Shown piece after piece: positions 3,459 to 61,499 of a stretch of DNA of 64,000 bases (positions are counted from its first letter, which is position 1; every line of letters begins with the position of its first letter). The stretch is from Albugo candida (Eukaryota): the NCBI GenBank assembly GCA_040437565.1, contig JBDOQK010000012.1, forward strand, positions 186,001 through 250,000, in the 5' to 3' direction. The notes under the pieces were generated by a model. It was not told the DNA's origin. It saw only the letters and a list, made by a program, of their open reading frames with translations, and searched no databases. The translations under genes were made by a program, and so were the position numbers.

Positions 3459-4060
3459 GGAAATCATTATAACGCATTGATTCCAATCAAGATTGTCTCG
3501 AATCAATTGGTTGAAATTATGTATTATTTATTCTGTGATTTGCTATAATAATCTCTTTCTGGATTGGACATAATTCGATTCTAATAAGAATCAGATGATT
3601 ACAAATGCTCGATGACATCATTGCTTTCGTTTAACTTGTCCAGCTGGCAGTCGGTGAAACGCTTTTAGTTTTAATAATATTTAAGATGACTGACCACATC
3701 TCACCTTCTTTTTTCGTATCCTATGAGGCTAAATATACTTCCAAGTCAATAATTCCTTTAAATGCACATATTTAATTGGTTTGTCGTATCAGATCGCTCT
3801 TATCTTCTATTTTTCATCAATCGAGCAGCTGATTCTGTGACATGTCGACTGGGAACTGCATAAAGATATTCTTGCGTGCTGTTCCAGCTTGCTGTACTAT
3901 CGAAAGAGGTTTTCTCATCTGTACTTTTTCTTTTCCCCTATTTTAAATCTCTCTCACTGAGCGACAAGCTTGAGATCTCGCTGCTGTTCGCATCCTTGTG
4001 TTACCTGCGACGCACGAATCCGGTTTCTCTGCTCTGTAATAGCTGTCTTTGGCAAGCGAT

Positions 4061-6011: not shown

Positions 6012-8069
6012 TCAATCCGAATGCTCATGAATAATTTTGTCGGTGATTCTGATAGATGTCCGATATTTTCTTTTTGGAGATATGGATTTCGCACGTCGTG
6101 CTAATTTGGATGTTAGACGCAATACAGCAACTGATGCCTGAACACGTTTTTCGTGTTCTTCTTTTGGCAAAGGTCGATCCCACTCTTCACTACATTCACC
6201 TGTATTGGCGTGAGGCGAAGTGCAAACGGAAGCTTTTCTGCTGGGTGAATTAATCTGATCAGATCGAATCAGTAGAAACCCATTACCCAGAACATCTCCA
6301 GTTGCGTTGGTGAAATTGGCTAAAGCTGCTTTTGCAGCATTTGATGCATGATTGCTTTCTTCAGGCGAATTGAGGTTCGATCCCAACGATAGCTCTTGAG
6401 ATTCTGACAATCGACTCCGAATATTCTGCAAAGATGAAAACTGCTCAATGATATCGTTACTCCTACCTTCTATGACCTAGCCGAGTACATAAGACAAAGT
6501 CAATTGGTTTCAGGATGCGTCATTTACCTGTAAAAGCTGTATAATTGTGGCTTCGGTGACTCCCTCCATCAAAAGTATATCGTTTAAAGAATTTTGTCTG
6601 AGCTATAATCCGTACAGAGAATTAGGTCACCGTCGATGCGAACCGGAAATGCATATCTTACACATTTTTCGCTTGGCGTGTTAGTGGAAACCTTTCCTTG
6701 GCATTCATCTCCCTGCTGTGCCCAAAATATGTCACCTTGTCACTGCGTGAAGCGATTACTACGTACGATATCATTGCATTTAAGGACGTTGTATAAATGC
6801 TCCACGGAACGTGCGTAGGATCGAAATTCTTGTTGAGACAATTTGCACATTCGATCGTACTCAGACTTTTCTTCCACGAGTCTACACAATATGAATGATA
6901 AATGCCACGATTGCGGAATTAGGTCGCGTGGTTTACTTCTGACGCGTCTTCACAAGTTGTTCCAGCGTCTTCTTCTTTCTCGTTGGGCTTTCAATACTTT
7001 GCTCTTGTGAATTTCTGTAATGGCAGGTGTGAGTCAAACGCTGTTTTTCTGTAAACGAATGTCTTACATTTCTATCTTTTTCTCGAGCTCTTTCTTTTCA
7101 TTCTCCACTTGTTCAATCTCAAGGTTGATATTCTGTAAGTGGCGATAGAGAGAAAAATACTCTTCTTCGTTTCTCATATCATTTCCATTTTTTTCAAAGT
7201 CGCCATCAGCGTCTGTGCAGTCAGTTTCAAATGGACTTTTATCATCAGGAGGCACATCAGTCGTATACGCCTCCTGCACCTGCGGAGGCTATTAGTCACA
7301 TACATACTCAGCATTATCGTTAGTACAATGGCAAATGAATTTCTCTACAGGCTTCAAGGTGGGTGTCAACTTCTCATTTCCTGCAGGGATTTCTTTCAGC
7401 TCCTCAACTTCATCCAATGTGTATTGTTGTAACACTTGCTTTCGGTAGCTTTCAGCATTTTCACGTTCACGGCGTACGATTTCAGTCAATGACAAAAATA
7501 CATTATCAAATTCTTGCTGATCCTCAGCGTCTTCTTGGTCTAGCAAGTACGCTTGAGCAGCGACCTTTTCATCTCGTACGTCAATATAATAATTATAGAG
7601 CGATTAAGCCACCTACTTTATCGCGCTCAGCCATGAGATACGTAGACTCCTTGAATATCGCCTGCATTTTCTTTTCAATATCCCGTAATTTTTTTTGCTC
7701 CTTGTAATATGCATTTTGAGTCGCTGAGCGCTCGGCACGCAGGACATCAATCTGCTCGCGAAGTTGCTGACTTTGAGCGAGAAACTTGCTTTCACGACTC
7801 TTGCAAGCCGATAGACGTTTTTCTAATTTGCTTGCATCACGTTGCTCACTGGCAAGTCTGGTGCGAACTGCATAAACCCCTCCATCTCGTTGACAACCTG
7901 TGCTACGCTTGATACGCCATTTTGTGAGTTCTTCTTGTTGATTTCTCCATCTTGCATTTAGATCCTGGTACCGAGCTTTCTGCTCTAATATTTTCTTGGA
8001 GTAGAAGTCACTTTTGGTCTGCAGTTCAAATAATTGTTCCGTCTGAGCTTTTGCACTGCTTATTGCCAT
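6012..8069 (-). CDS. Outer dynein arm docking complex coiled-coil subunit (ODA1/DC2, CCDC114/CCDC63-like), multi-exon
   Basis: Coiled-coil exons 'KLEKRLS...LREQIDVLRAERS...LMAERDK', 'EEEYFSLYRHLQNINLEIEQVE' and C-terminal 'DRPLPKEE' resemble conserved ODA1/CCDC114 blocks. Exon boundaries are approximate. Confidence 0.7.
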
Positions 8070-8230
8070 ATTTTTGTACGTTTCGAATTGAATTCGCTGC
8101 TACATATAGACCTCTGCTGGAGACGTTTAATCGGTTGATACGACTTTTGGACAAATTAGGCATCATGCCGATACGCCGTTCCTTTGAACTAAGACTAAAA
8201 GTCTCTACTTGATCGAGATTTTTGTGTAGA

Positions 8231-11200
8231 ATGAGCAAGGATTCCGGATTGAGGAATTATGGTGTACGCCTTTTCTTAGTGGAGCCATCCATTGCTTCTG
8301 TATCAGGTGGTTGCAAACTCATTATCCATGGCAAAGGTTTTGTTGGAACAGCCCAAATTCTTAAAGTGACTTTTTCGCAGCCGGAATTTGACCTCATGCC
8401 GCGTGTTCAGGTCAACGGAACCTACCGCTCTGACACTGTTATGGAATGCATACTTCCTGACTTGACACAACCAGTACACAGCTTTCTCACCAAATGCACC
8501 AATTCTGCTACAACTATAGAAGCAGTGAGATCATCTCCTTACTTAGTTCCTGTAGATATTTTTGTAACAATCGATGAATGTGTATCGAACTCAATGATTA
8601 TCTCCCTGCATCAAGAAATTCGCATACGAAAGGTGTCACCTCAGTACATCCTCACGTCGACGCCCGTATCGATCTGTACCACCATCAATCTGACATCAGA
8701 AGGCGACAATTCTATCCATCCTCAATGCACAACAAGAAAAGGCGAGAACAGAAGCTTAGATAATATCACAACTTTGCCTGTTTTCGTACGAGTACGATGC
8801 GGTTTCTCAAAGAATGGTGAGGCGCCTTGTGAGCAAATTCGAGAAGCTACTTGGAAGGTGTCTGCACTTGGTGCCTACAACGTTATCTTTCCAGCTCCGT
8901 TACTAGGGATTGGAGTTACCCGAATCCAGGTCTCTTTTACAAGAAAGCTTTTTTTCCCCAGTGACGAAATGAGCTCTGTCTCAAGACAGTACGTTGTTCA
9001 TAATGAAGTCCATTTGGATTCAATTGAACCACCATGCATTGTATTCAATTCTGGAATAAGTCCTGTGATAAAAATCAGAGGTCAAGGATTTGTTGATTCT
9101 GGGGAGATCACACTTTGCTTCCAGCAAAAGGGTGGAGAGAAACAGCGAGGAAAGCGAGAAGGGAACGATACAATTGAGCAGCCGAGCACGACAAAGATGT
9201 CAGGAACTTTGTTCTCAGGCGGCGAAATTCATTGCACGGGATTGAGATCCTCGTTCGGTCTCGCAAAGGTGTACGTCTCATTCAATAATGGTCAACAATA
9301 TAGCAAAGAAATGCTCCCAATATTGGTATGCCGGGAACGCAATTTATTTGGTACCTTTCCTCGGTATCTCTCTTTGAAGGGAGATGATTTGGTAAAGCTT
9401 CACGTCTCACGGCTTCCATCTGACGCAACTGATTGTTGGGAAAAACTGAGAGAGATAAGACCCTCCGGTAAGCTTTATGTGGAGCTTCAAGGTAGAAATA
9501 GAGATGGAATTCCCAATCAATTCCTTCGCAAACGAGTTCCCTTGGATTCCAGTACTGAAATGCATGGTGCAAATGATACAAATGATCCTATAATATACCA
9601 GTTTCAATTTCCATCCTTTTTCCAGCACATCGAGCCATTTGTCGAACTAGAACGTAACCTTTCAAGGACTGAACAATGCAACGATTCGGATTGTGCGAAT
9701 CAGTTTCTCAAAAGCGGCCTGATTACATTTTCCTGTTCCGTCATGTTTGGTGCCAGCTTACTGGCTGGCGATATCGACTTGGAATCTTACATACCACCTA
9801 TAATCACATCCGTTATCCATCAGCATGGACCAAGTACCGGAGAAACTTCTGTTTTCCTATCAATGAAGTATCAAGTTCCACAGAACATTCCCATTACCGT
9901 GAAATTCCAGTCCGCTTTCTCAGATATGAACGAGACTACCTCAGGGATTCGATCCAACACGTCAATTCATGGTAGATCCGTATCGGAGTTTATTGATGAC
10001 AAGACAGCAAGAGACGAAATAAAAAAACCGTCGAATCATGGTCTCGGAAATCCTGACTTTACTGTTGCGTGCTCCTCACCTGCATGGCAGCTTGGTTCTG
10101 TCGAGAATAGTCATCTTACTTTGGTACAGATTTCGTACAATGGAGGATATGACTTTTATCCCATATTGACGCGAACGAAGACTATGGATAAGACTAGTAC
10201 TCTCGGATGGAAGCTCGTACTCGGAAAAGTAAAAAGCATTGGTAAAGTGGATACAATACGGGAACCAAAGCAAGATTTGACATTCTTGCAGTTCCTATAC
10301 TACCGCAATCCAATTGTCAGTATGCTAACGCCAATTTCGGCCGATCAAAAAGGTGGAACTGTTCTTTCTCTCATGGGGTCAAACATTATCGATCATGGGC
10401 ACATCGCGATCGTGCGGTTCACGTCACCAGAGCTGTCAGAATGTGTTCCAAGCACCTTTATGGATGGTCAATTACGTTGTATCGCTCCTCCGTTTCGAGC
10501 TGGGTATACTGACATCTCAATTACGTTCAACAGCGAGCAGTACGATGTTTGCGATCTCACAGCGTCAGACAGCACTCGTCAAGGTCGTTTTCTATACTAT
10601 GAGACTCCATCAATTACCAGTTGTCGTCCTAGATGCCTATGCATACACAAGTCGAGCATTCTTCGGCTGCTGGGCACGAACTTTGTCGAAACTGGATCGA
10701 TCATGTTATCCTTTCATTCTCAGTCTACCAATAGCTTCAAGGCATTTTCTCATAAAGTCAAATCACCAGGGAGACTCGAAGCCGGGTCTGTTATTTGTGA
10801 CTCCCCTTTGCTAGCAAGTGAATTAGCTGGACAAAATCTCTCAATCTCAATTGCTCTGAATGGAGTGGATTTCATGGATACTGGGATAAGCTTGTACTGC
10901 TTCAGCTCTTACAAAATTATTCAGGTAGACCCCAAGATAGCTGTGAAAGGATTGCCAATCGCGTTAACTCTATATCTCGACCAAAAAGTTGAATCAGACT
11001 CTATACTACTACAGGTACAGCTGCTATGTCAGGAGACGAGTATCGTGCATTTGTATGGCCCCATTCAAGCCGACTTCTGGGAAGAAAATTGTGTCAGATT
11101 TGAATTTCCGGCCATTGATTCTATCATCAGTCCTATTCATAGGCTCAGTACTGCTCATGTCGCGATATCATTCGATGGACAAGACTATCACCAGCTTGGT

Positions 11201-14200
11201 GATCTTTTACAGCATTTTGAAGTTAGTGTCATGCCACAAGTATACAATGTATTTCCTCTTTGTGGTCTCTACAATCAAGACACAGTTATAAAAGCTCGAA
11301 GTGATCACCTGAAGAAATTTGATGGCAGACTTCAGCTCTACATCACATTGAAGATGGACCCGTTAGAAGGTCTGCGGAACACAGATTTCGTTGGTCACGT
11401 CGAAACAAGTTTGCGATTATCCTCAGACGCTGAAGATATGCTTACTTGGATATGTCCATCTATCATCAAAGTTATCTCACGAGATAGTAACACTGAATTC
11501 GCTCGTTCAGCTGTGCAATATTTGAAAGAAGATTCGGAACGAGAGGGCCAAAGTATCATCTTGAAACCTCGTCTTCACATGCAGCTATGTATAAACGAAG
11601 GTCAGCATCTTGGCCCATCGACTACTTTTCGGTATCTCCGTTTGCCAAGACTGATATCCATGTCTCCAATGATCGGATTTGTCACTCCTGGATCCATCAT
11701 CGCCTTGAAATTCCAGGAACCACTTGATCATACAAAAGTGTTTTTCAGATTTACTAAGGAATCATCGACAGCTGATACCACGTGTAGCTTCAGGGACGAG
11801 GAAAATGTAAGAAATGTGCTCGAGTGCCGCACACCGTTCCTGGTTAGTGGACGTCATTGGCTTTCCATCTCCTTGAATGGTCAGGATTTCTCGCTTCTCC
11901 ATTTTTACCGACCGGGAAATAAGGAACTGAAGAGCAACAATGAAGAAGGAATCAATCAGAATACTGACCATGCTTTAGATGCCAAATTGGCACAATTTAT
12001 AGCTTACAAGATACCAATGTATAAGGAAGCCCCAAGCATAAGTAAAAAGATCATAGGTAGCGGTATAGTCGATGGTCAGACGACAATACAGATTCACGGA
12101 AACGAATTTATCTCCAACCATCCCGTTTACGTCCGTTTCTATGCTGCTTTGAGCGAAGACAATACTGTCTGCGGGTCTTGTGAGGCAGTTGAGGCGATAC
12201 TTATTGACAGCAATACGATTGAGTGCAACTCGCCTCCAAGCAGCGTTCCCGGACTAGTGGAAATCTGCATCAGCTACAATTTACAACAATATGCCAGCAC
12301 ATTGCTCTATTTTGAGTATCACTTAGCTCCGGTTTTCAAGAATAGAGGCGAAGAATGCGGAAATGTGAAAGGAGGAACACGAGTCGTTGTCTCAATTGAA
12401 AATGAAAAGGTTGGTCTTCCTGCAAACAAAAGCGTGATATGCCCTGTCTTCCGATTTCAAAGTTGTGGAAATGGAAGGCTGAGTCAAAGTAGCGAGGTCA
12501 CCGCTATGTATGATGCTTCAACACATACAATGTCTTGTGTAGCTCCGACATGGAGAGGGAATGCGCTGGTGCAGATATTTATTTCTCTCACGACTCAACC
12601 TTTCACTAGATTTCTTCATACTGGCATCTATTTTGTCTATTATGATCATCCTGAAGGCTCAATGAAGCTTCTTCCAGCTGCTGGGCCTATAACAGGTGGA
12701 ACCAATGTGCACCTACACTGTGGTCACATTTCTGGTGCGGATGAGTGGGCGGTACAAATTACACCAGATGCTGCAAACGGTAGCATCAATCGTTCTGGCG
12801 GATGTGTTCCCGGAAAGAGAATTCCAACGACTTGCGACGAAATGGGGTTGGTACATTTTGAGACTCCAGCTACACGGAACTCTTATAATGCTCAAATCAG
12901 TCTTCTTGTTCACGGAATCAATATAACCTCTGCACATACGAGATCGTTACGCTTTACATATTTTCTATCTCCTATTGTGCATCAAATCTGGCCTCCATGG
13001 GTTGCGTCCGATACAGCCTTGACTGAAATCGTCCTTTTGGCTGACAACATACGAGACTTTGGCTGTTCCATCTTAGCTCGACTCGAAACGCACGTTGCTG
13101 GAAAAGGTCGTGTTGCTAAGACCTCAATCGGTTTTTGCAAAGATGGGAGGAAGGATGAGATTAGTAATACGCAAAGTATCATTGTACCTGCAGTAGTCGA
13201 TTATGCAACCATCCAAGACGACATCAGACGAGAACGAGGTCGAGCTCTGGTACGCTGTAACGTGTCCGAAATTCAGATTCTTGCTGGGTACTATGAAATC
13301 GAGCTAAGCCTGAATGAACAGCAGTATTCCCAGTCCGCGTATACGAATGCATCTGTTGCAAATTACAGCGGTCTCCCATGTACCTCACCCAATCCATTCC
13401 GTGTGTTTTCGGCTCCTTTCTTTCTCGCAACTCATTTGGGACCTATGGCAGGTGGACCAACAATAACAATCTTTTTCAGCAAACGTGTGGGGCAATTTCT
13501 GGCGAAAGAAAACAAATGTCAGCTTCAATTTCTACCCATTTCAAAATTGAAAGGGGAGAGTTTTAAAGGCTTAGACGAAGAACAAAGTAAACTCGACACT
13601 CCTGTTGCCTTGTATGTGCCGGCCGAAATCGATCACAAAAGTACCCGAATTGTTTGTAAAGCACCGTCCTTCCGAAATAATTGCAAAGTGGAAGTAGATA
13701 TCATCATGTCGTACGCCTCTGTACTATCCGTACTTGCAGCAATCGATCGCCTGCATAAAAATGAGCTTACAGCATCTATAACACTTCCACCACCTGGAAC
13801 AGCATCATGTTCTATTCTTCAAATGTTTGGAAGCAAAGAGAACGACAAATACTGCACATACCAATCTCCTTCGATCAGTGAGATGACACCTTCCTGTGGA
13901 CCGACGAAAGGCAATACGTTGGTTGTGATACAAGGCCATGGAATCATTGATACTGGTCAGGTATTTGTACGATTTCGTTCGAGTAGCAACGAACGTGATT
14001 TGGTTCTAGTTCCAGGAAAGGTTAGCCTTTCGTTTCCTAATGGAGAAACGAGCAAACTACCACTCATTTTATGTGAGACACCGAGCATTTCATGGTCGGA
14101 AATTGGGGCACCTATCACCAACATAGAAAATTCTTACCCACAAGAAGCGCCAATACGCTGCTTGGGGAGAGCTCGGACGCATATGAGCGTTGTACTAGCT

Positions 14201-17200
14201 TCCTGTAGCTTGCAACGACGTAATGAATCTGTCAGTCAGTCTAACAAAGCCGTTCATACTCTGCACTTGACTCGTGCAGATTCAACCCGAAGTACGACTC
14301 ACAAATCAAAAAGTCCTGGATCACCAGTGGCTAAAGATGGCTCAAAATCTGGAGATATCAAAACTAAAACATCTATTCTCCATGATTCGAGTCATCTTGT
14401 TCTCGTAGACTTCACACTCAATGCAGGAGAGCAATTTATCACACATAGTGTTCCCTTTTACTACTACACGGAACCAGAAACCACCAATGTCAAATGGAGT
14501 CCGCGAGAATTTCCGTCCCAAACAACACATCGCTACGGCTCTGTTAATCGAATTTTGACAGTCAAATTCCCACCTCAGTGTTATCCTTCCGCATTGAATG
14601 ACAACTTTGGTGGCCGGATAGCGTTTTGGTTTGATGGTTTATCAGCAAAGATCACCTCAGAATGTTACGATACATCTACAAAACTTCATGACAATGACAT
14701 GAACTGCCATCTTTGCACATTCCAGATCTCTCATCGCAAAGGAAGTTGTACCTCTCCTATCAGATTAGAACCTACGACCACAAGTACTACCCATAAAGCC
14801 ATGGACGCATCCAGCACGAAAGCAAGCTACCGTGAAGGAGGTGCTGATTTGAATACCACAGAATCCCATCGCCCTGATCGTAACAAACCTATCTATTACA
14901 TTGCGGCAAGCTCTTCTCGGGCCCAGGAAATTACATGCAACGTCCCCGAATTTTTCGAGACAGGAAATGTGAGAGTTTTATTCTCATTTAATGCACAGCA
15001 GTTTATCTACTTGGGAGATCTCGGAATTCATCAGCCATTGTATATTGAACAGCACGAAGCTCATCGATATTGCTCATGTCTTGGCTCGGAGCCATTTCGA
15101 CTAAAGAGCTCTATATCGAGTCTACTTTCTTCAATTCCAGCTCATGACATCTCTAACCAGGTATCACTCAGTCGAGAGCGGAACGCAGTGAACAATGTGA
15201 TACGATGTCAGGCAGCAGAGGATACGGTTTTGAAGGAGAAAGAGACTTCTTTTTGGGGGGCAAGAGGCCTTCGTTTGAATACTTGGAGAAAAAGAACCTA
15301 TCAACAGATTCGTGTTCATCTCGCTCTTGCAAAAAGTGAGAATGAGTACGGGAAAGAAAAGTACTACAAAAAGAAAATTATTGTGTCAGTATGTCGCACC
15401 AGCATTGATCATGTCATATCGAGCAAAAGTGTGGATGATGAAGGGGAGTGCGTCTTTGAATCATCCGACTGGACAAAAGAGATCCATTTACATGCTCAAG
15501 TGATTTTGGACGCGGTATCGTCAGAAGCAGCATTTACCGAGTATTCAGCATCGTATGCGGAGTTTTATCGAGATAATCAGCCCCCAGAAAATAGTGAAAA
15601 TGGAATGAGCCACCCAATCGACATTATCTTGCTTCAAAGAACGACACAACACATTTGTCAAGCTACTCAACCCATTCGACCTTCATTATACGTCGCCTTG
15701 AAAGTTTTCTCCACTGAACATGTTTTCTCACAAGTTGATGTTAAACTCATTATTACAAATGAAAAAAGCATTATGCATGAAGATCAATCCAAACGTGCAG
15801 GAAAAACGGACGATTTTATCTGCCAAACAGAGGCTTACAACGATGCAACCCTTAATGTAGTTAAACTTGATGTATCACAGCTCGCATCAAGCCCATTCGT
15901 CATAGGTGTTGCGTTCCGATTTGATAGTTCTCCGTCTGGGTTATGCTCGACCGTGTTCAAAGAAGTCCAAGTGATTGTCTATGATAGTTGTACGACGTTT
16001 GCCTATTTTACTTTGGAAGAAATTCCAACATTGCGTAGTTCTGAAGGTAATGTAGGATCGTGCATTTGGATGGTGGCCAAAGGCTCAGTAGCTGATAAAT
16101 CATCACTGGATCTCCTTAAAATCAATGAATTTGGAAGTTCTTGGAGGAAATGGACCGAAGAAAGCGCACCGAAGAAAACAGGAGAAGTGATTGTGGATTC
16201 TGCGTTACTCAACACCGCATCTAAACCCTCTTGTAAAAAATCGAACGTGCTCGAGTCTATCATGGTTCAATTTTCAGGATCCACTGCCACCGGTAGATTT
16301 TCTATTGAAGTACCTGGGAGGCTGATTTTCCCGGAAAAATTCTCTTTATCAACTCTGATGTCCGAGCAGAACAATAGTGAGACATATAAGATGATTGAGA
16401 TTTCCTGTGTCCCTCCGTCCACTTTATTAGATGGTTATGTGAGCGTGTCGATTATGTTTCAAGGTGTGAGATTTTCCAACACGCTTTTATACCAGTGCTA
16501 CGATCCAAGAAAGTGGGCAATCAAAAATGCTACTCCCTCGCTTATCGTCCATGGATCAACATCATTATTTCGTCTTAAAGGAGGACAGTTTATTGACACT
16601 GGGAAGATATGCGCACGCATTGTGGACTTGAAGGGATCCCAGGTTTTAGATGTACGGGCAGATATGGAGAGAACCTGGAGCATCTATATTCGTTCTGTAA
16701 GTGTTCGGCAAGTTAAAGAGTCCCGTTTATCGAACTGCGGGCTTTCCAAAGATTCGTTGAACTCCNNNNNNNNNNNNNNNNNNNNNNNNNNNNNNNNNNN
16801 NNNNNNNNNNNNNNNNNNNNNNNNNNNNNNNNNNNNNNNNNNNNNNNNNNNNNNNNNNNNNNNNNGAAGTGATTGTGGATTCTGCGTTACTCAACACCGC
16901 ATCTAAACCCTCTTGTAAAAAATCGAACGTGCTCGAGTCTATCATGGTTCAATTTTCAGGATCCACTGCCACCGGTAGATTTTCTATTGAAGTACCTGGG
17001 AGGCTGATTTTCCCGGAAAAATTCTCTTTATCAACTCTGATGTCCGAGCAGAACAATAGTGAGACATATAAGATGATTGAGATTTCCTGTGTCCCTCCGT
17101 CCACTTTATTAGATGGTTATGTGAGCGTGTCGATTATGTTTCAAGGTGTGAGATTTTCCAACACGCTTTTATACCAGTGCTACGATCCAAGAAAGTGGGC

Positions 17201-20200
17201 AATCAAAAATGCTACTCCCTCGCTTATCGTCCATGGATCAACATCATTATTTCGTCTTAAAGGAGGACAGTTTATTGACACTGGGAAGATATGCGCACGC
17301 ATTGTGGACTTGAAGGGATCCCAGGTTTTAGATGTACGGGCAGATATGGAGAGAACCTGGAGCATCTATATTCGTTCTGTAAGTGTTCGGCAAGTTAAAG
17401 AGTCCCGTTTATCGAACTGCGGGCTTTCCAAAGATTCGTTGAACTCCACCAGTGATGTAAGTGGAGCTACTTTGGCTGACACCAGGCCATCCAGCGCACG
17501 TCCTGCGACCACATACACCAAAAATATAGACACTCGTCGTCTCGAGCTTCTCTTGTCGATAACGTATGGTAATTGCAAGGTTGTTAGCAGTAGCGTACGG
17601 GAGGTTAACCTTTCTATGGGAGGATCCAATATTGACCTGATTACCCCGGCACTATTATGGGATGAGTCATTTGAGCTTCAAGCAGAAAATCAAGATCAAT
17701 CTCTCATCATCTCTTTGAGGGTCAAGGAGCGATCGGACAACTCTGGCCCAAACAATGGAGCAATTTCGGAACTGGTGAGAAGTGTTTTATCGATAAAGGA
17801 TCTCGCAAGTAATGAGCTCTATCAGAAAAGCGTTCCTATGCAGCAAGTTTTCAAGCCGTCTCTATCTTTATCAAACACACAGAAGTATTGGACGAGCTCA
17901 TTGGAACTCGACCTCGCTGTGCAAGTCTCAGTTCCTGTGCTAAATACAAACTGTCTAAGCTGTCGACCAGATTTTAGATCATCACCGATCAATTCCATGT
18001 CCGATTTTAACGAGCCTTATCCGCTGTACATACAAATTTTTGGAGAAAATGACTACTTGATGTGTGCTGATACGAGAAACGTCCAAGTGCGTGGACTCGA
18101 TACAGATAGCCCAGATAATGACTATGCAGTTGCACAGGGCTTCACTGTTTATCTATACCGATTTCCAGTGATTTATGAGACCATTCCGTGTGTCTTACCC
18201 AGGTCAACTGGAGGGCACATTCGTATTCGAGGCTCTAATTTTATGTTACCGGCTCAAGAAAACGTAGTCATTCGATTATTTGGATGCAAATCAACGCCAG
18301 AGAATGAACACGACTTGTTGTACCCTACTTCTCTGCTGGAAAGTATCAATGTGCTCTCTCAACCACATGATGGAACGAACGAGTTTCTTATCTTTGACAT
18401 AAAGGGGGTCGTTTCGACATTAACCGAACTCACGTGCGAAATTCCAGCTTTTTTAAGCAGCTTCCGCGTGTTTTTTAGGGTGTCTTTGGATGGTGGCATC
18501 ACTTTTTCTCAGGCTACAAAAGCTACGCAATTACTTTTGTTTAGCGTCGACAAAGTTGAGCCTTGCGCTGGACCAAACACAGGCAAAACTTATGCTGCCC
18601 TATGCGGTACAAATATCAATGCTTGTCTGTCGTTCCTGTCAACCTGGATTCGAAAAGCTCACGTGCGATTGAAATGGATGAAAAATGGTCGAGAACTTGA
18701 GCGTAAAATCATCACTGCGGAGCATTATTCTCCAGAAGATATTGTCTACTTTCACACACCACAAAGTCCTTTTCGGCTGGAGAATTTGTCTCTCCAGATT
18801 GAGCTTTGCCTAGGCGGTGTGCCTCAACCAACAACGAAGCGGGACCTTATACTGGACATTGACAGTAGCGATGAGATACGAAAAACTGAGCAAACTCCAT
18901 GTACATTTAGCCTCGACGGTGCTTTATTCTACACGTACCGATCTCCAACTATTAAATCCATAACGCCGGTAGCAAACTTACTTCCCGGGATCACAGGTCT
19001 CGAAATGGTTCTACAAGGAATCGATGAGATTGGAGTTTCACGTCTTAGTCATCTATTTCGCGCGCGATTTTGTTGTCGAGGGCAGATGCAAACTTCAGGT
19101 CTGGCTCTACATAACGGAGGGAGGATGACTACTATTTTACCTCGGTTCAATGTGCGCAATGCCACGTCAGTCGAACTCGTACCAGAAACAAGCAAGCAAA
19201 AGTCAGTCAACAGAGTCCTGCGTCGTGAGACCAAGTCTGAGCATTGCGGAATTATCTCTGAGAATGATTATCGAGTCCAAATGTATCGAGTAAATTCAAC
19301 GTTGCGCAAACCGCAACGTCTTAAAGCTGATTATATGAAACGATCTGAAAATTTTCCACCGACAAAATCCTTGACTTTATGGACAAGGAAATCAGGACTC
19401 GTGGTTTGCGTGGTACGAGGTCATAAATTTCGGCCATCCGAAAAAGGAACATGCAATTCGTTTGTTATCATCAATTGCGGAAAAAAGGAGCAGCTTCGCA
19501 CAACAAGAAGAGATGGTTCCTTCGACCCGGTATGGAACGAGGTACTGGAATTCGACGCTGCATGCTTGGATACCTCTCAAGACATTGCGAAGGACGGAAC
19601 TCCGATGCAAGAGGTGATGTTATATATCTCAATCTACAACCAGGTGAATGACCAGCATTGCGAGACGCTCGGCTCTATAGATCTTCTACTGTCACGTGTC
19701 AGCGGTGAGAGTTTTACTTTTCGTGGATCTTTTTCTATCCATCGTTCATCTTCCAAATATCAGATTCAAAAGATCAATGATTTATCTACATCGAATGTAC
19801 CGAGTGGAGTGACACCATATGCGTCACAACATTATGGAATGCTAGAACTTTCGATTATCTTTGTGCCCCAAGCTCGATCCAGAAGCTCTTATGCAGGGAT
19901 GATGCAATTAGCGGCTTCAAAAACGCTCTCTTCTGCCGTAAGATCGCGCACCAGATCTTCATCCACATTTCTGAAGCGAGATTCCGAAAATCATGGTGCG
20001 ACTTCAAGATCAAATGATCAGATTATCTCAACACGCACACAGACAGGGGGCAACAAGAACAGAAAGAAATCAGATAAAGGCTCCGACAATGAACGATTAG
20101 CTCGTATTTTCACTTCCAATCTATCAAACTTCTCAGCAACGATACCGACTGAGATATCCGCCGAGATGGCGCTGAATGGGCAAGATTTTAGCTCTGTAGC

Positions 20201-23200
20201 ACCGATACAATGCTATATGGTACCGCCACCTTTGATAGTCGGAATAGAGCCTAGCCTGATCTCCATAAATGGAGGCACAACATTGACTATCACTGGAATG
20301 AATTTTGTTGCGACTGGAAACATCAAAGTCGCATTCAGTCTGCTGAATTCTGGGCCAAGTAGTCTGGATTGCGTTGCCATCGTAAATGCAAAATTGCGGT
20401 CAAATACTGTAATCACATGCGTGACTCCTTCCTTTACCGACAGGACATATAAACGTATGATCATATACCTGTATATATCTTTAAATGGATTTGATTTTGA
20501 TAGCATCAAACTTCCAAGAAATTCGTTTCCTTCCTCGAATCTCGTGCAGGCACACGACCACAACATTAATCAGCATGATTCGGGGCAGAAGAAGAGCGTT
20601 AGTAGAATAGAAGCATCGCCGGTATCATGGGATGATGGGCGATATGGACGCTACAGATATACATTAGACACTCAAGCCTTGCATTGGAAAAAAGACTTAA
20701 GCTGCTGGGGTGACAATACAAAGGAGAGTAATGCCCCTATACTCCAGCAACAACTTGTTATTTATCCGAGACCAGAAATCGATATCATTCAGTACGTTGA
20801 TTGTCCAGATGATTTAACTTTACGAATGACAGGAAGGAATTTTATTGATTCCGCTTCTGCAGTTGGTACGTTGAATTTGTGTTTCAATTACACTTTGATA
20901 TCTAAAGATCAGTTTCTGTAGCAATTTTCACACTTACTGACAATCCAAAAGCCCAACATAGCACTTGTCTCCAAATCAAATCAGAAGTAAAAATGGAATG
21001 TCAACTCCCCGAGAGTATAAGACACGGAATCACCGTCTATGTGAAGATCTCTTTCAATGGCCAAGAATTTATTTCGTATGAAAAACCTCTCGTTGCACAG
21101 CATCGAACACGAATACTCCGACTCATTCCTTCCTGGATTTCGCTCAAGTCTCTTATGAGCTCAGAAGAAAGCGATACGGAGAAGATTTGCCTCAGATTGC
21201 CTGGAATCAACATATGCTCACCAGAACCCAGTTTGAAGCCTACTACAGCTGTGGTATCATTTCAAATGGATGGAAAAATATTCTATTCCGTGGCAACATT
21301 GTCGGATAATGAGGTGCAGTGCTTCTTACCGTTCGAGGTAATCCGCTTTGCAAAAATAGCATTCCAACGCGGCATCACCGAATCTATGGTTGATGAGGCT
21401 TCTTTTGCAATCTCAGCTTTGGTTGACTTCTCCCCAGATGGCCAAATTGTACGTTATTTGGGTTCATTCGATGCTTCAATGTGATATGATAACGTACGCT
21501 CTCATCAATAGTTCATAGGAAAGCCACTGATTCTCAGCATACACAAGGAACCACCAATTGTTTCCGGTATCACTCCTTCAAATGGACCAATCTATGGGGG
21601 ATCAACTGTGACCATTGACGGCAAAGGCTTTATCAATACTGGAGAGATATCTGTCCGATTCTCGCTACTACAATCAGTACCAAACGTTGATCCAGATGAG
21701 AAGAAAGACGATCGAAGAAACGCTCCTATCAGCCCACGAGAAGCTTGTCTTGACATGAGGATAGTTACGAGCGTCACGAGAAAAGCGGTCAAAGTGTTTT
21801 CATCAAAAAAACAGCGATTCGGGAATAGTCGAAAGCCTATCCAGACTGAGAAAGAAAATGCGTCCGAGTTCGCCAACAAGAAGACATCTTCGATCGTGAA
21901 GAAGACAGATAGCGTATCATATCTCGCTCGTTTCGTCTCAAACACCTGCATAACTTGCACAACATCGTCGTTTGCGTCGGAAGGAATCTATCAAGTCTCG
22001 GTTACGCTTAATGATCTCGAATATTCCGAAGTAAATTTCTCGTCTAGATTTCTTGTTTGGCAAAGCTGGCAACGGAAGCGCCAAATGCTCGCAAGCATGA
22101 TTGCGAATGACGCTGCAACAACCCTTTTGAGCAAACTCGGCGCAAATCTTGGCTTCGCTGAAGCGCATCGTGACCACTCTATAGAAATGTCACCACGTAG
22201 AAGCGTGCTACAGAACCTGGAGCAAAGTGTGACCAACAAAGTGATTTTTGACGAAAAAAAGCTTGCAGACCTATTGAAAGAAGTCACTGCATTATGCGAA
22301 AATGATGTCCATACTCAGTATCCTGTGGAAATCGAAACGGATCTTGCTGAGTACGTGTTTTTAGTAATCTACAGCATCTGCTGATCTCGATCTTGGTAGA
22401 ACCCACGGATCTGTAATGAAAGTCATGCAAACGTTTTTGGAATCTTTGGTAGTGCATATGCATACTGAAGAGCCTCTGGATACTTTTGTTGCCTCGAACA
22501 TAGATTTATTACGTGATTTATTCGAGAAGATATATCAAGATTTGTCTCAAGATGCGTTCATCAAGGTCATGCGTCATTACTTCCCAAGAAGCTCGACGAT
22601 GGCACTGNNNNNNNNNNNNNNNNNNNNNNNNNNNNNNNNNNNNNNNNNNNNNNNNNNNNNNNNNNNNNNNNNNNNNNNNNNNNNNNNNNNNNNNNNNNNN
22701 NNNNNNNTGCGTCATTACTTCCCAAGAAGCTCGACGATGGCACTGGATAAACTGTGGCAGTTTATTGAGCAGCACCAGACACAAAAGACGGGGAATGAAG
22801 ATCAGAGTCGTTCTAAAAGGAAGAATACGATCCTTTATATAGACAAAACATGCGCTGAAAGCGCTCAATCAGAACGAAACGAACCGGGACCGGCATCCTA
22901 CGATCCTTCTTATGCGAATGTTGAGATTCGCAATCCATCTGCTTTGATTTTGCCTAAAGCTATAGCAAACGCCGTTCCGCCCACATCCCCGCCTAGAGAG
23001 ACCATCGACCATGAAAACGCCGTTCAGTTTATCAAACCCAGAATACCACAAATTTTCATCAGCAAGCGTAACTATCTCACATCTTGGTGCAATCCACTAC
23101 CAAAGTCTTGGAACGATCTAGAAAATGGTATGATACTTCGAACGAATAAACAATCTGCTGCAAAAGTTCAAGCGAGTCACATGTCTCTCACGGTTTCGTC

Positions 23201-23453
23201 AGCAAAGAAAATTCGATGTCCCGAAAGACCTTTGCAATCGGATCAGAATGTTTCGCGCTCGAACCGCGGGACTGCAGCGGGACGGAATATAGTGAGTAAA
23301 GCTGTTGACAGAATCGCACAAGCGGAGTTTTCGAAAGGAGAAGACATCGGTGACATCAAAAAGACTCTGGTAGAAAAATGTGAGTCACGTCCCCCGGATG
23401 CACCATTTTTACAAGACATCGCACCAATGTACACAAGACTTTTGAAACGATGA
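8231..23453 (+). CDS. Giant (~4,744 aa after collapsing gap duplications) IPT/TIG-repeat protein with C2 domains, 4 exons
   Basis: Exons 8231-20865, 20922-21448, 21512-22350 and 22400-23453 join in frame through GT-AG introns of 56, 63 and 49 nt. About 20-25 repeats of the form P..G...GGT.v.I.G..F...C..P...vS.NG..f. C2 motif 'VVRGHKF...CNSFVIINCG...RTT...DPVWNEVLEF'. Confidence 0.8.
16184..17447. other. Assembly gap (100 N, 16766-16865) with 582-bp duplicated overlap
   Basis: 16184-16765 is repeated at 16866-17447. Confidence 0.95.
22570..22745. other. Assembly gap (100 N, 22608-22707) with 38-bp duplicated overlap
   Basis: 22570-22607 is repeated at 22708-22745. Confidence 0.95.
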
Positions 23454-23542: not shown

Positions 23543-24731
23543 TTAATTCTTGATTCTGAAGTGATCAATTAGATCTTGAGTATTTATGGCGCCAATGGCC
23601 CGATCATCAAAAAACATGAATACGTGTGTCCACTCCTTCGCCGAGAGTTCTGTAGATGAAGAGCCATGGCTTTTGAGTCCGGTACAATTGAGCTTGAGAA
23701 AAGTAGCATGATCTATGTATCCATTCGGAAGCGTTGTACCTTCTACTTTTTCAAAACGTTCAATCCATTCTTGCTTGCGACCCGCGCTCTGATTGAGCCA
23801 GACATCTAGTTTTTGCAGTGCTGACCTTTGATGTATTGACATTCCGTTTCGCTCGTCACGATTGCTACCTGGCTCCATTGCTTCGCCATGAGCTTTACTA
23901 GCATCTCGTATGTCGTTTGTGAAGCGAGTGCTCCTGGCAAATGGATTGCTCGAATCTGACCCGGACATCGGATAGCCAAGACTTTTTCCCGTTTGGATGG
24001 CATGTGAATAGCGAGTTAGCGTCGGACCGTCTCCATATACTGATTTCGAGTTTCTTGTAACGTCAAGCTTCATTCTATCGATGCTGTCAGCCTCTCCGAT
24101 TGTCATATCCGGAGGAAATTCGTTAACGTATTTTTTGACAAAAGTAGCGTTGCTTGCCGCAATAGCCCCATTTCGGCCACGTTGCGTTCGCTTTCCTACG
24201 AGGTATTTCGTGTCGTGTGCTTTGTATGTTTCAATTGCATGAGATTGCTTTCTAAACGTTGATATTTGCTGTTCCCACTGGTTATCTTTCTCGGCTTCTT
24301 CCCTATCGATCATCTGCTGCGCTTGGGTAAGCAGCTCTTGATCTCGGATTGCTGTGCGGGGTCCATTGACGTAAGGCTTGGCGATTAGAGATTCATCATT
24401 TCGCAGCGCATTTTGTGTGGTGCTAGTCAAGAGCTCATTCCACTTACTGACAGCTTTTCCGAGGACACGATCTCGCGTTGACTCCAGTATACTATTCGTA
24501 TCTACAAGGTCTCAGCACAAAAGTCAGAAACTTGCTGTCGTTCAATCAGGCGGGAGAATCACTACGAGCTATCGTGTCTGGAAATAAAGTGGTATTTGCA
24601 TCAAAGTGGTGAGGCTGCGGTACTTGACGTCTTGTGTGGCCCGTTGTATCTCTGAGCGCATTTTCCTCAATCCAATTGCCTATTAGGGTATCTGTAGCAT
24701 TGCTTTTATTATACGACGCATTGTTCTTCAT
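23543..24731 (-). CDS. NWE-motif ciliary microtubule inner protein (SPAG8/FAP143-like) with a C-terminal EF-hand-like region, spliced
   Basis: N-terminal 'TLIGNWIEENALR' (NWE-type motif), internal 'NPFARSTRFTNDI', and EF-hand-like ends 'GYIDHATF' and 'FDDRAIGAINTQDL'. Confidence 0.6.
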
Positions 24732-24927
24732 GGTCGCCTACTATAGTATTTTGAGACTTGCCTGATGAAATCTATTATATTTAGTTTTTTTGTACGCAAG
24801 GTGTACTTCCAGTGCACATTGCAATACGGCGTCAGTTATCCAGGCGTTAGCTCATACCGGACAATCAAGTAGACTTGATACATCGGAGATGAGGTCGTCA
24901 TTTTCGAGCAGATAATTAGGCCTTTGT

Positions 24928-27900
24928 CTAAACGATAAAATCCTCCAAGTCGGCAAACGCATCATCACCGCTTTCCTCACGAAGACATTCATCGATATAT
25001 GGATGACGACTTCGTAGTCTCCTCCTCTTACGTCGTCTTAGAATTGGAATAGTTCCCAGCCAATGTTTTCGATTTCGAGCGAATTTACTTGATATTTCGC
25101 GATTTCCACCGTCAGTAGTTGACAGCCCGTATGGCTGAACTCGATCCAGTAGTAGCTGCAAATACGAGTGCATCTCCGCGTCGCTCTTACAGATCTAGAA
25201 AAAATATGATAAGTCTAAGACTGACACATCAGGTGTATGGTACATACCTCTCTCCATTTCGTGAGGAAGCCAATCCATTCAGATGAAAATAAGTCGAATT
25301 GGAGCCCCGTATTAGCAAGCTTTGTATGCAGAACGCGGTCAGACGTGTCGCACAGTGATTTTATTTCCTGAAGCCAGCATTTTGCGGCAATAATATAGTG
25401 CGTAGTAATTGACAAGAATGGCAGTCTTTCTGTGCTTTCATCTTCATGATATGCAGCCGTCATGATAAAGCAGGTACCCTTCTTCACGATTCGCATCATC
25501 CCATCCAGTGTGAGCAGTAATTTGGCAATTGTCTTGCTAAGATCTACTGATATCGCCCTAGTCAGTTTGGTGGGGCTGAAAACATTACGTTCTGTCGACT
25601 GGACGAAGAGCTGTACGATCCACAAGTAGTTTGCATTCGTTAGGTCCAAATCGTCGACTTCGATAAGAGAACCAGTCACAATTGCGATTAAATCTTTGAT
25701 GAGAACAATTACGCTCTGCGATGATTGCTGCCAGATTTCAGCGGATGCTGTATCCAGAAGTCTTGCCTGAACACTCTGTGCCTGACCAATGTATTTCAGA
25801 ATGCTCTGTAGTGCCATCATCTTCTCTGTGCTGCATCTCAAGAAAGGTATTCGAACTTGCTCGTCATCAAAGTCACAATCTTTTACAGAGCTAGGTGAAT
25901 CGCCCTGATATTCCAAACTCTCCTCATCACTGCTTTCAAGAATCGAACGATGTAGACGCTTCAATTTTCGCTTAAAGCTGCCTGGTTTTTCGATCAAGAC
26001 TTTTGGTTGATAGTGTTTTTTATGACGTCCGATTAGCTTCTTGCATTTTTCAATACCACACACCAATGCGAAACCCACAATTCTTTGATGATTCACTTTG
26101 ATTGTGCTGAGAAGCTCTTCCTGTATTATCATCGCGTCTGAGTTGTCTGATATAGAGAGAATGACATGCGGGAAGCAGATTTCTAGTAAGACATGCAGTA
26201 GATTCGGTTGATAAACGACATGGATACACAGCAAGTCGTATGCCATACAAGCCAATCGTAGATGTATAGTGCTGTTTGCTTTCTCTTCTCGAGAATCTCG
26301 AGTAAGCTTTAATAAAGACTCCACCAGTTTTGCACAAGCCATTTGAGATCTCTCCACGCCTTCAAAGTCCATCAAATAGGCAAGGTCGAGAAAATAACGA
26401 AGCGCCAAGTAGCTGGTGATGTTCTGATGTGTTTCATCTTCCGTAAGCGACGTCGCAAAGAACAAGTTGCTACCTCGTACATGACTGGAGATTGTATCCA
26501 ATTCATCTGACGTAAGACGACATAGATGGATTGATAGTCCACCTAGTATTTTGCACAAGTATGGCTCGTATGACTTGAGAGACTCCAAAACGGTAGAGAC
26601 CGGCGAACTTTTCTCAAGGTGTTGAGTAACCCAAGTCGGAAAGTGAGGTGTGATCGTCTGAGGATTCACCGACAAAAATATGACTTTTGGTTGCACTTTG
26701 TGATTTTTCGGACTACTTGTGAGTGCTTTCTCATGTTGAAAGCGAATTTTTTTTGCGATACCACCATAAAGAGTCAATAGCGATCGAAATATGAAGATAC
26801 TCTTGTCATGATCACCGATTTCCTTGCAGCAGTAGTTCAGTATGTACGTAAAGCCATCACTGCTCACGTAAGACCTTGAAGCTCCTCTATCACTTTCCAT
26901 GTCATTTGATCGATGCGAGGCGACAGGTTGATCATGGCCGGCGCTGTTTCTGTCAGAAATTGGGAACTCTGGGTCAAGTGCATGAGCTAGGAGTCGTATG
27001 AGTTGAGGAAGATGTTTTGCCATTGCATTATGAAGCGGGTTTATACTGCATTTCTTACCATCATCTGGTCGATCGGCTGTGGTATGCAACGCAGACGACA
27101 TCCGTTCTAAGGAAGACATAAAGTCTATCAATTGCCAGAGCTTCTGTTCCCATTTTGATGCACCTCTGTTGTTCAGCTCCAAGTGAGATAAAACTAGTTC
27201 CAATACTATATGACACAATCCCATCGCCAAAGAAGCGCGAGCTACGTATTTCCATAAGACTTTTGGTCGACCAGACGATGAAGTATGTGACGAGCTACAG
27301 AATGGACCATGCGGCACGTGCGACGAAGAATCTACGGTAGATTGCTCTTGGGTATCTTCATCGGTACCCCCCTCTACCTCTTGTATCCCTGTAGTAATCC
27401 ACACAGAGAGTCGATCGAAATCAAATACAAACTTCACTATCGCGAGTGTGATTGATTCTGTAAAGCGACCAAAAGGATGTTCCTCGTATCTCTTTGGCGT
27501 CTCCGAGCTCAGTTTTTCGATCAAGGTCATACACTTGAACAAAGCATAGAAAGTATGCCCGAGTCCGATTGCATTAGATACTGGTAAAAAAAGATCAATT
27601 TCTTTCGACGTATCCAGGCAGCGCAATACTTTGTCTACTTGGGTGAAGTTTATAGCATGGGTAAATGACATATACCGGTCAAGAATCGGATGAAATTCCA
27701 TTGAAGTAGTGTGAACAGACTCGTCAATCGCTTCCGCTCGATCCATATCGTTGGTGGCATTTTTTATCCAGCTCAATGATCTCATGTCTATGTATTTACA
27801 TAGAAACTCACGAACGAAATCATACAACGCCAAGACCATCCAATCGTTTCCATTCTTCCGAGCTTCTTGATTGTCGTGACCCTTTGAACAGGGTTGTAAG

Positions 27901-35640: not shown

Positions 35641-36006
35641 AGGGGTTCAACTTGACAGCTTTAGCCTGCTTTCTTAGTGATCTTAGCTATTTATATATTT
35701 CCGGGAAGGCAGCCAATAAAAACATGCATATAAAATAGAGCCGCTCAGGATTGGATATAGATTTCGTGTNNNNNNNNNNNNNNNNNNNNNNNNNNNNNNN
35801 NNNNNNNNNNNNNNNNNNNNNNNNNNNNNNNNNNNNNNNNNNNNNNNNNNNNNNNNNNNNNNNNNNNNNGTCACCATAGGGGTTCAACTTGACAGCTTTA
35901 GCCTGCTTTCTTAGTGATCTTAGCTATTTATATATTTCCGGGAAGGCAGCCAATAAAAACATGCATATAAAATAGAGCCGCTCAGGATTGGATATAGATT
36001 TCGTGT
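35633..36006. other. Assembly gap (100 N, 35770-35869) with 137-bp duplicated overlap
   Basis: 35633-35769 is repeated at 35870-36006. Confidence 0.95.
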
Positions 36007-42900: not shown

Positions 42901-43132
42901 AAGAGAGCAATGAGACGCTACGGATCAATGCAGCGATTTTGTATTCACTTTGTGTTAAAATAAACCNNNNNNNNNNNNNNNNNNNNNNNNNNNNNNNNNN
43001 NNNNNNNNNNNNNNNNNNNNNNNNNNNNNNNNNNNNNNNNNNNNNNNNNNNNNNNNNNNNNNNNNNAAGAGAGCAATGAGACGCTACGGATCAATGCAGC
43101 GATTTTGTATTCACTTTGTGTTAAAATAAACC
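42901..43132. other. Assembly gap (100 N, 42967-43066) with 66-bp duplicated overlap
   Basis: 42901-42966 is repeated at 43067-43132. Confidence 0.95.
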
Positions 43133-60837: not shown

Positions 60838-61499
60838 TGACAACGCAAGAAGATAATCCCGAGATCGTGACGCATTTGATCAAATATGGATGTGATCCGA
60901 ACTCGTGCGATGCGGATGGGAATACAGTACTGCATTATGCGGCACAAAATGGACTTTGGAAAATAGCGGCTACATTGGTTTCTCATCGAGCTTCGATAGC
61001 CTTTCGGAATGGCAAAGGAGAAATGGTGCTGGACAGATTGGCACCACAGCAGCTCGAGTGGCTCATGAGCTTTGTATCATCATCTCCCGAATGGGTTCCA
61101 TTCTCGATGCAAAAAACTTGCATGATATGTGCCCGCCGTTTTGGACTGATCGTTCGGGTGCATCATTGTCGTCTTTGTGGGCGTATTTGTTGCGGTCCGT
61201 GCTCGAACTTTAAGCGTAAATTACCGTTCCAGGTTCACGAACCCGTAAAGAGAAACCAACGGTCCCCATCCACTATACTCAATATGAGAAGACTCAGTCG
61301 TAGTGTATCCTTTTCAAATTTTGAAATTCGTGATACTACGGTTGTATCCGGGAATCGACTCCACCGTGTGTGTGCAATCTGCATCAATGTGCAATGCAAC
61401 GCGGTAAACTCAAGTGAAGACGTATTCAAAAGCGTTACTCAGTCAAACATGACTCGTTTGACAAAGAGTCAGGTCAGTTATCTCGAGCGTTCACGTTGA
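60204..61499 (+). CDS. Ankyrin-repeat + FYVE zinc finger protein
   Basis: Ankyrin motifs GYTALHRAA, LAVHLAAKYG, NTPLHFA and GNTVLHYAA. FYVE: W..F...CMIC...RVHHCRLCGRICCGPCS...HRVCAIC. Confidence 0.92.
   Translation: MTGHVEIDCTKTKDSSRDDSSLASTSSIESDHERPRGTDTQSKIYNSEHVSTRLSQLLHISSEKDDTTIRASIHMANRWKKVGYHPYKMDASGYTALHRAAKKGDSALISVLLSMYDGPQQELAAIPSKKQAHLAVHLAAKYGRLDALRTLTTPEFRSLVNTLDRSRNTPLHFAVTCNRQTAPDLVLTLLSRGADVTIKNRHEILPIVAYIMTTQEDNPEIVTHLIKYGCDPNSCDADGNTVLHYAAQNGLWKIAATLVSHRASIAFRNGKGEMVLDRLAPQQLEWLMSFVSSSPEWVPFSMQKTCMICARRFGLIVRVHHCRLCGRICCGPCSNFKRKLPFQVHEPVKRNQRSPSTILNMRRLSRSVSFSNFEIRDTTVVSGNRLHRVCAICINVQCNAVNSSEDVFKSVTQSNMTRLTKSQVSYLERSR

Follow-up and report, generated by a model that had tools for sequence, protein, structure and literature searches.

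What occupies the plus strand between 8213 and 23453 of the Albugo candida stretch analyzed here (assembly GCA_040437565.1, contig JBDOQK010000012.1, positions 186,001 to 250,000 of the forward strand; 64,000 nt, hereafter the window)? Five stop-to-stop frames of 2,897, 1,386, 192, 290, and 361 codons fill this interval, and it has to be decided whether they belong to several genes or to one, and what the product would do. The original prediction, made from the letters alone, fused them into one coding sequence (CDS) for a giant intracellular protein of IPT/TIG repeats and placed that protein in the flagellar apparatus. Our analysis identifies 8231–23453 as a single A. candida gene with four exons, interrupted by two assembly artefacts of the overlap-and-N type. 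The product is an all-beta protein of approximately 520 kDa whose one C2 domain lies roughly at the three-quarter point of the chain. With moderate confidence, and by analogy with other proteins of this build, we propose that it acts as an oomycete-wide cytosolic, rod-like scaffold or membrane tether.

The fragmentation into five frames has its origin partly in the assembly. Two runs of 100 N lie inside the gene, at 16766–16865 (gap 1) and 22608–22707 (gap 2). The 582 nt behind gap 1 are an exact copy of 16184–16765, the 38 nt behind gap 2 are an exact copy of 22570–22607, and excising 682 and 138 nt restores the reading frame. DNA contigs from run X1 (one contig) and run X5 (several contigs, under a different organism label) pass directly from 16183 to 16866, skipping 682 nt, and from 22569 to 22708, skipping 138 nt, which bears out the two gap artefacts as predicted. 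The same DNA contigs retain three short introns with GT..AG borders, also foreseen in the original prediction. In one spliced contig of 10,408 nt from run X6, all three are removed and both gaps are skipped; the label "RNA?" of this run is a guess, and its spliced joints are used here as the transcript evidence. The parts of the gene are as follows.

8231..16765, plus strand: exon 1, first part, residues 1–2845; open frame from the ATG at 8231, a start common to the A. laibachii ortholog
16766..17447: assembly artefact 1, 100 N plus a 582-nt copy of 16184–16765; outside the real locus and skipped in the X1, X5, and X6 contigs
17448..20865, plus strand: exon 1, second part, residues 2846–3985, the last codon split by intron 1; beta-sandwiches, the C2 domain, and a TIG
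20866..20921, plus strand: intron 1, 56 nt, GT..AG; skipped in X6 only, with a gap-free match to P0001
20922..21448, plus strand: exon 2
21449..21511, plus strand: intron 2, 63 nt, GT..AG; supported by X6 and the P0001 match
21512..22350, plus strand: exon 3, with the last TIG (containing an insertion; Pfam E 3.1e-10); the tail starts at about 22034
22351..22399, plus strand: intron 3, 49 nt, GT..AG; supported by X6 and the P0001 match
22400..22607, plus strand: exon 4, first part
22608..22745: assembly artefact 2, 100 N plus a 38-nt copy of 22570–22607; skipped in the X1, X5, and X6 contigs
22746..23453, plus strand: exon 4, second part; C-terminal tail with conserved short motifs, TGA stop at 23451–23453

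Joined (8231–16765, 17448–20865, 20922–21448, 21512–22350, 22400–22607, and 22746–23453), the coding parts give a CDS of 14,235 nt encoding 4,744 aa with one terminal stop, the same figures as predicted for the fusion of the five entries. The best database match of the first exon, at 99% identity, is a public A. candida "unnamed protein product" (P0001, 4,689 aa), whose residues 1–4689 align to residues 56–4744 of our model with no gaps and 99.06% identity. Residues 1–4744 of the model also align to AlNc14C11G1330 of A. laibachii Nc14 (P0002, 4,777 aa) at 68.6% identity. The public A. candida model begins at M56. Because the A. laibachii protein and 19 of the 22 aligned sequences begin no more than 12 residues before the first TIG (TIG1), the ATG at 8231 is the better start. 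It follows from P0001 that the gene is not hidden, as had been claimed: the same exon structure is already annotated in public A. candida data, and the gene model itself is not new.

The raw window, with five entries in different frames, could also be read as several genes, or a decaying pseudogene, fused only by sequence editing. We regard this as nearly negligible. Independent DNA contigs lack the 682 and 138 nt, and the gap-free match to an annotated 4,689-aa protein is accompanied by full-length orthologs of 4,100–4,777 aa in many oomycetes. Since the X6 contig spans the window from about 12,100 to about 23,514 with the three introns removed, at least the 3′ 10.4 kb form one spliced transcript, and for this part the idea of separate genes is already refuted.

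The two interruptions are part of a pattern in the assembly. The window contains six N gaps. In five, a stretch of 38 to 1,160 nt ending at the gap edge recurs unchanged behind the gap; at the sixth (44815–44914), a 66-nt repeat stands clear of the gap. The duplicate-flanked gaps are:

16766–16865, 22608–22707, 35770–35869, 42967–43066, and 59578–59677: runs of 100 N with a duplicated flank

This looks like a systematic scaffolding artefact, in which the scaffolder evidently put overlapping contig ends side by side. Such duplicated flanks break real genes, and they would frameshift or duplicate part of any gene they hit.

We then turn to the domain content of the protein, which is laid out along the gene as follows.

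8285–14095, plus strand: TIG array in exon 1, residues 19–1955
14096–16765, plus strand: mixed beta-sandwich region in exon 1, residues 1956–2845; TIG, transthyretin/NOMO-like, and TerD-like sandwiches by AlphaFold2 (AF2) and VIA
19398..19697, plus strand: C2 domain, residues about 3496–3595; Pfam PF00168 at 37.3 bits against a cut-off of 22, present in 7/7 orthologs scanned

Only TIG (PF01833) and C2 scored above the curated Pfam cut-offs, in Albugo and in all seven orthologs scanned, as anticipated. For TIG, P0001 reached 95.1 bits against a cut-off of 20.9, and the seven orthologs were likewise above it, with just 4–7 significant stretches per protein. A self-iterated profile recovered 19 TIG segments; their mean pairwise identity of 21% indicates that the repeats are old and not recent duplications. 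A profile-profile scan of a 22-sequence ortholog alignment against this profile gave 18 TIG-like starts at a probability of at least 80% (residues 19, 267, 377, 532, 701, 800, 1146, 1278, 1376, 1482, 1737, 1887, 2769, 3092, 3780, 3968, 4054, and 4182) and four weaker ones at 25–76% (residues 1009, 1588, 3217, and 3352). The repeat array that had been predicted is thus present, with 18 strong and four weak units in place of the 20–25 proposed; this count of 18–22 is not fully independent, because the scanning profile derives from the same family.

Two stretches without TIG signal, residues 1956–2845 and 2846–3984, were folded by AF2 with ortholog alignments. Both models are nearly all beta with disordered linkers between the units, and they can be trusted only at the level of the domain fold, because the predicted local distance difference test scores (pLDDT) are low to middling (mean pLDDT 64.8 and predicted TM-score 0.58 for the first stretch, 55.0 and 0.40 for the second). 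The first model was compared by VIA with approximately 48,000 PDB representatives. Its best single TIG match was CAMTA1 (Z 9.5, rmsd 2.0, 87 aligned residues), and the TIGs of EBF, plexin, and Rel followed at Z 7.3–8.1 (EBF3 8.1, plexin A2 IPT 7.9); a transthyretin/NOMO-like immunoglobulin (Ig) domain (NOMO/BOS) was matched at Z 9.3. A further beta-sandwich of about 165 residues (residues 2482–2646, window positions about 15674–16168) has TerD as its top structural match (Z 9.7, 137 aligned). TerD is a bacterial tellurite-resistance, Ca2+-binding domain, and its fold was unexpected within a TIG array. Taken along the whole chain, we estimate about 30 beta-sandwich units, of which 18–22 are IPT/TIG and the others transthyretin/NOMO-like or TerD-like. 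No PDB sequence matched P0001 at E≤1e-3, and the ESM Atlas returned no usable match for residues 2846–3984. Foldseek matches of the whole models to complement, leptin receptor, pilins, mastigoneme, FMG1B, and mouse central-apparatus proteins were rejected; their TM-scores of about 0.2 or less reflect generic Ig-array likeness.

The clean Foldseek matches of the second model are confined to the C2 domain, which superimposes on the C2A domains of E-Syt1, myoferlin, and dysferlin and on a Trichomonas C2 with TMt 0.69–0.75 and E values of 2e-6 to 2e-5. At the loop-1 positions of this domain the ortholog alignment reads SKK...CNPF. What we take to be the consensus of Ca2+-binding C2 domains has D...SDPY there. 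Because the loop-1 aspartates are replaced by Asn and Lys relative to that presumed consensus, any membrane binding by the C2 domain would probably be independent of Ca2+.

How widely is this architecture found? A HMMER search with residues 2846–3984 against 1.84 billion representatives returned 179 matches at E≤1e-3 and 16 at E≤1e-30. In the family-specific part of the query (62–588), eight of the 10 top representatives carry names, and all eight are oomycetes, among them Pythium insidiosum, Lagenidium giganteum, Phytophthora lilii, Aphanomyces invadans, and Saprolegnia diclina. The oomycete matches are collinear with the model over residues 12–3870 or more. The remaining HMMER matches cover a single TIG (query 895–1020) and include Gefionella, Heterosigma, Choristocarpus, and a Firmicute. 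Judged by these alignments, collinear relatives occur in oomycetes only among the named matches, and the family, which has no characterised member, spans Saprolegniales, Albuginales, and Peronosporales. Its members are entered in databases as "hypothetical", "C2 domain-containing", or "IPT/TIG domain-containing", and the literature searched makes no mention of PITG_01375, AlNc14C11G1330, PPTG_11989, SDRG_15950, H310_14379, or Poli38472_005665. With collinear relatives seen in oomycetes only, the protein is a candidate lineage-specific marker for oomycete cell biology.

Giant TIG proteins from outside the oomycetes were considered as orthologs and rejected, since their matches are non-collinear and some of their C-termini are multi-transmembrane. 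Four such proteins are P0013, P0189, P0193, and P0022; some (e.g., that of Gefionella) reach 5,500–6,400 aa and end in clusters of 3–6 strongly hydrophobic segments. In contrast to the oomycete family, these giants look like membrane proteins whose ectodomains are very large TIG arrays.

Textbooks present long IPT/TIG arrays as extracellular modules. We next consider the cellular location of the oomycete protein. Its N-terminus leads directly into TIG1. In the Albugo protein the top 19-residue Kyte-Doolittle window reaches 1.82 and includes both E and D; windows of 2.0 or above are absent from 12 of the 15 orthologs, and in each of the remaining three a single marginal window occurs, its position differing from one ortholog to the next. 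By hydropathy, together with a start no more than 12 residues from TIG1 in 19 of 22 sequences, no signal peptide was seen in Albugo or the orthologs, and hydropathy revealed no conserved transmembrane segment in those examined, in agreement with the prediction that the protein has neither. With the first Met of the divergent neighbour only about 160 nt away from the ATG, an upstream exon carrying a signal peptide would hardly fit in between. Taken together, the start at TIG1, the hydropathy, the short upstream interval, and the C2 domain support a cytosolic location.

In the competing view, the gene model has missed a signal peptide or anchor, and the protein is an adhesin at the surface or outside the cell, comparable to plexins, fibrocystin, or mastigoneme proteins. 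This view draws on the extracellular setting in which long IPT/TIG arrays are best known, on the multi-transmembrane C-termini of some non-oomycete giants, and on the presence of the Chlamydomonas mastigoneme protein Mst1 and of FMG1B among the generic Ig-array matches in Foldseek. However, the TM-scores to the mastigoneme protein and FMG1B are 0.1 or less, Pfam shows no Sema, PSI, G8, or PbH1, and the C2 domain is a cytosolic module. Together with the conserved start, the close neighbour, and the lack of any conserved hydrophobic segment, these observations make an adhesin very improbable.

Beyond the last TIG, the final 410 residues or so form a low-complexity tail. All 13 tail-bearing orthologs keep four short motifs: F(L/V)xWQxWQ+R, SP(E/Q)PGPxHY(D/N/E/A)P, KPRxPxxxFxKRxxxxSWCNP, and DIAPLYxKFL. 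The second is located as follows.

22881..22907, plus strand: EPGPxxY(D/N/E/A)P motif, with PGP at residues 4556–4558; kept in 13/13 tails

The original prediction took the PGP motif as a flagellar hint, and PGPxxY(D/N)P presumably resembles the sperm-tail PG-rich repeat. The PGPxxY motif is indeed conserved, as a single copy: PGP occurs once in the whole 4,744-aa model, and the tail gave no Pfam match to SHIPPO/STPGR (PF07004) at E≤10. A 247-aa part of the tail had no match among PDB sequences at E≤10.

The motif leads to the question of whether the protein serves the flagellum. The original prediction of an intracellular Ig-like filament or ruler held as far as an intracellular giant Ig-like array goes; its assignment to a flagellar or basal-body scaffold is not supported. 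In the form in which we weighed it, this assignment would make the protein an Ig-like rod or ruler of the flagellar apparatus in zoospores, with PGPxxY as a possible contact to microtubules. Part of its appeal lies in the neighbourhood, which was described as a position between two axonemal genes.

1107–2492, minus strand: open reading frame (ORF) with STIL_N, Pfam E 1.1e-17
6012..8099, minus strand: ODAD1-like gene (outer dynein arm docking), in head-to-head orientation to the giant gene and separate from it; Pfam ODAD1_CC E 1.4e-9
23543–29744, minus strand: run of ORFs downstream, 322, 936, 159, 257, and 153 codons; no Pfam family
33345–35255, minus strand: kinesin motor
38650–42627, minus strand: ABC transporter
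43796–44814, plus strand: SRP54, crossed by an N gap
60180–61499, plus strand: ankyrin-FYVE

STIL is a centriole-duplication factor. The upstream ODAD1-like gene stands as one axonemal neighbour, and a region of about 160 nt forms a divergent promoter region common to it and the giant gene. The downstream neighbour, in contrast, is not recognisably axonemal: the ORF run at 23543–29744 has no Pfam family, its 936-aa ORF gave in the ESM Atlas only weak helical-repeat nuclear leads (Med23, Urb2, Integrator) at 0.90 or less, and two of the downstream ORFs had no match among PDB sequences at E≤0.01. This run may represent one large unannotated gene. The rest of the window is housekeeping in character, with the ABC transporter, SRP54, ataxin-10, a dehydrogenase, and Ank-FYVE.

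Phylogenetic range was weighed next. All named organisms with an ortholog form zoospores, as a flagellar role would lead one to expect. With the P. lilii protein as query, 46 matches were listed, 36 near-length ones and 10 that are shorter; organism names are attached to 27 of them (Phytophthora species, Nothophytophthora, Pythium, Globisporangium, and one brown alga). Downy mildews are absent from these 27 named matches, a pattern that could be taken to indicate loss with the flagellum; however, the zoosporic genera of downy mildews are equally missing, the comparison had no positive control, and we do not count the absence as a sign of loss.

Published data on Phytophthora infestans bear more directly on the question. 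Judelson et al. 2012 list 257 flagellum-associated proteins of this species (PMC3471859). The ortholog PITG_01375 is absent from the three supplements of that list, contrary to what a flagellar protein would lead one to expect, and neither of the adjacent locus numbers, PITG_01374 and PITG_01376, occurs there; axonemal adjacency is therefore not seen in P. infestans, as far as these supplements go. The words "motif" and "promoter", looked for as a lead to a promoter motif, do not occur in the text available from that source (PMC3471859), and a further paper, PMC11267843, mentions the flagellar list in its references only. PPTG_11989 is absent from three supplements of a Phytophthora parasitica zoospore membrane-proteome paper (PMC12223298), which says little, since the selection in that table favours membrane proteins and includes a single row for a dynein heavy chain. 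PITG_01375 and other accessions were not found in the supplements of PMC6264045 or in the readable supplements of PMC6570648, and the only mention connecting a TIG domain with flagella or stramenopiles, in the portion available of PMC8204020, was unrelated.

The most telling evidence comes from expression. In Table S2 of Ah-Fong et al. 2017 (PMC5635513), PITG_01375 stands at 43.4 counts per million (CPM) on rye and 30.6 CPM on pea in early, non-sporulating cultures, and at 107.9 CPM (rye) and 37.0 CPM (pea) in late, sporulating cultures; in tuber it is given as 12.5 CPM early, 35.5 middle, and 78.7 late (PMC5635513). The rise in sporulating cultures is thus 1.2–2.5-fold (2.5-fold on rye), and that from early to late tuber about 6-fold. 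For centrin, a marker of sporulation, the same paper gives a rise of more than 100-fold (PMC5635513). The differential-expression tables also include the Pythium ultimum ortholog, PYU1_G008817, although the cultures concerned had very few sporangium-like swellings (PMC5635513). Hyphal expression, which the original prediction had named as a sign against a flagellar role, is thus found in part: the transcript is present at 31–43 CPM in non-sporulating hyphae, yet it also rises on sporulation.

Given these expression levels, the absence from the flagellar list supplements, and Pfam profiles that show no ASH, hydin, or CFAP family at E≤0.1 in seven orthologs and no SHIPPO, a flagellum-only role is unlikely. 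The head-to-head ODAD1-like gene, the STIL_N and kinesin genes in the window, the sporulation-stage rise, and the PGPxxY(D/N)P motif, with its presumed likeness to sperm-tail PG-rich repeats, all speak for a flagellar or basal-body rod, which we nevertheless consider improbable as the main role. Given the sporulation rise and the shared promoter region, the protein may have an added spore-stage or flagellar-apparatus role alongside a hyphal one.

We return to the scaffold or membrane tether as the preferred reading. At about 4 nm per Ig-like domain, the chain of beta-sandwiches would, when extended, be a semi-rigid spacer with a length on the order of 100 nm. Through the C2 domain, one point of this chain would be pinned to a membrane, and the tail motifs may dock partners. 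Overall, the protein would serve as a structural scaffold or a membrane-to-cytoskeleton tether, active in hyphae and spores and not specific to the flagellum. We infer the spacer and scaffold role, and with it the rod shape and membrane binding, because tandem Ig-like arrays and C2 domains behave in this way elsewhere. Several points weigh against this proposal. The sporulation-linked rise and the promoter region common to the giant gene and an axonemal gene fit a spore-stage function as well; the AF2 models are of low to middling confidence; and the Ca2+-site reading, which suggests Ca2+-independent binding, depends on a presumed consensus.

A more specific version, which we consider doubtful, would make the protein an oomycete-specific cytoskeletal element, a cytosolic TIG rod comparable to titin or filamin. 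With C2 on the membrane and the tail (PGPxxYxP, KPRxP...SWCNP, DIAPLY) on microtubules or another filament, such an element could, in hyphae, hold the cytoskeleton at a constant distance of about 100 nm from cortex or organelle membranes. Its reuse in zoospore cortex or flagellar-root assembly would explain the sporulation rise. The remaining probability is reserved for readings not considered here.

The scaffold or tether reading can finally be set against known systems. By domain content, the protein belongs to the TIG and C2 families. It shares tandem IPT/TIG (E-set) domains with plexins and fibrocystin (PKHD1, PKHD1L1), as reflected in VIA Z scores of 7.8–8.3 to plexin IPT domains, and fibrocystin is similar to it in overall size. 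In contrast to these proteins, the oomycete giant has no signal peptide or transmembrane segment by hydropathy and carries a C2 domain instead, and Sema, PSI, G8, and PbH1 are absent at E≤0.1 from its seven scanned orthologs. The TIG giants outside the oomycetes differ as well, their similarity being non-collinear and at the level of repeats only. The single-TIG proteins CAMTA, EBF, NF-kB/Rel, and Sec5 show that the fold also occurs inside the cell, and CAMTA1 provided the best single-domain structural match; these proteins, however, place one TIG beside DNA-binding or other modules, whereas the giant has 18–22 TIGs and no DNA-binding Pfam family was found in it. With the C2A domains of extended synaptotagmin and ferlins it has the C2 fold in common, but the domain occurs only once in the giant, and SMP, FerA, and transmembrane parts are missing. 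STPGR/SHIPPO proteins contain several PGPGxY repeats, in contrast to its single PGP.

The likeness is of another kind for titin, filamin, hydin, CFAP47, and CFAP65, which are very long cytosolic chains of Ig-like domains without a membrane anchor, and mouse central-apparatus chains are among the weak Foldseek array matches of the giant. The domains themselves differ, being I-set/FN3, filamin, and ASH/MSP in those proteins and TIG in the oomycete giant. Pfam Filamin appeared in one of seven orthologs only (E 0.087, 14.1 bits against a cut-off of 26.9), and no CH or kinase family was found by Pfam in the seven orthologs. Unlike what would be expected of an axonemal Ig-array giant, PITG_01375 is not restricted to sporulation in its expression (43.4 and 30.6 CPM in non-sporulating cultures). 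A TIG array of about 520 kDa with a C2 domain and no signal peptide, present in all major oomycete orders and transcribed in hyphae, would thus point to an unstudied structural component. In working principle it may be closest, in spirit, to the cytosolic Ig chains of titin, filamin, and the hydin type, built from another Ig-like family.

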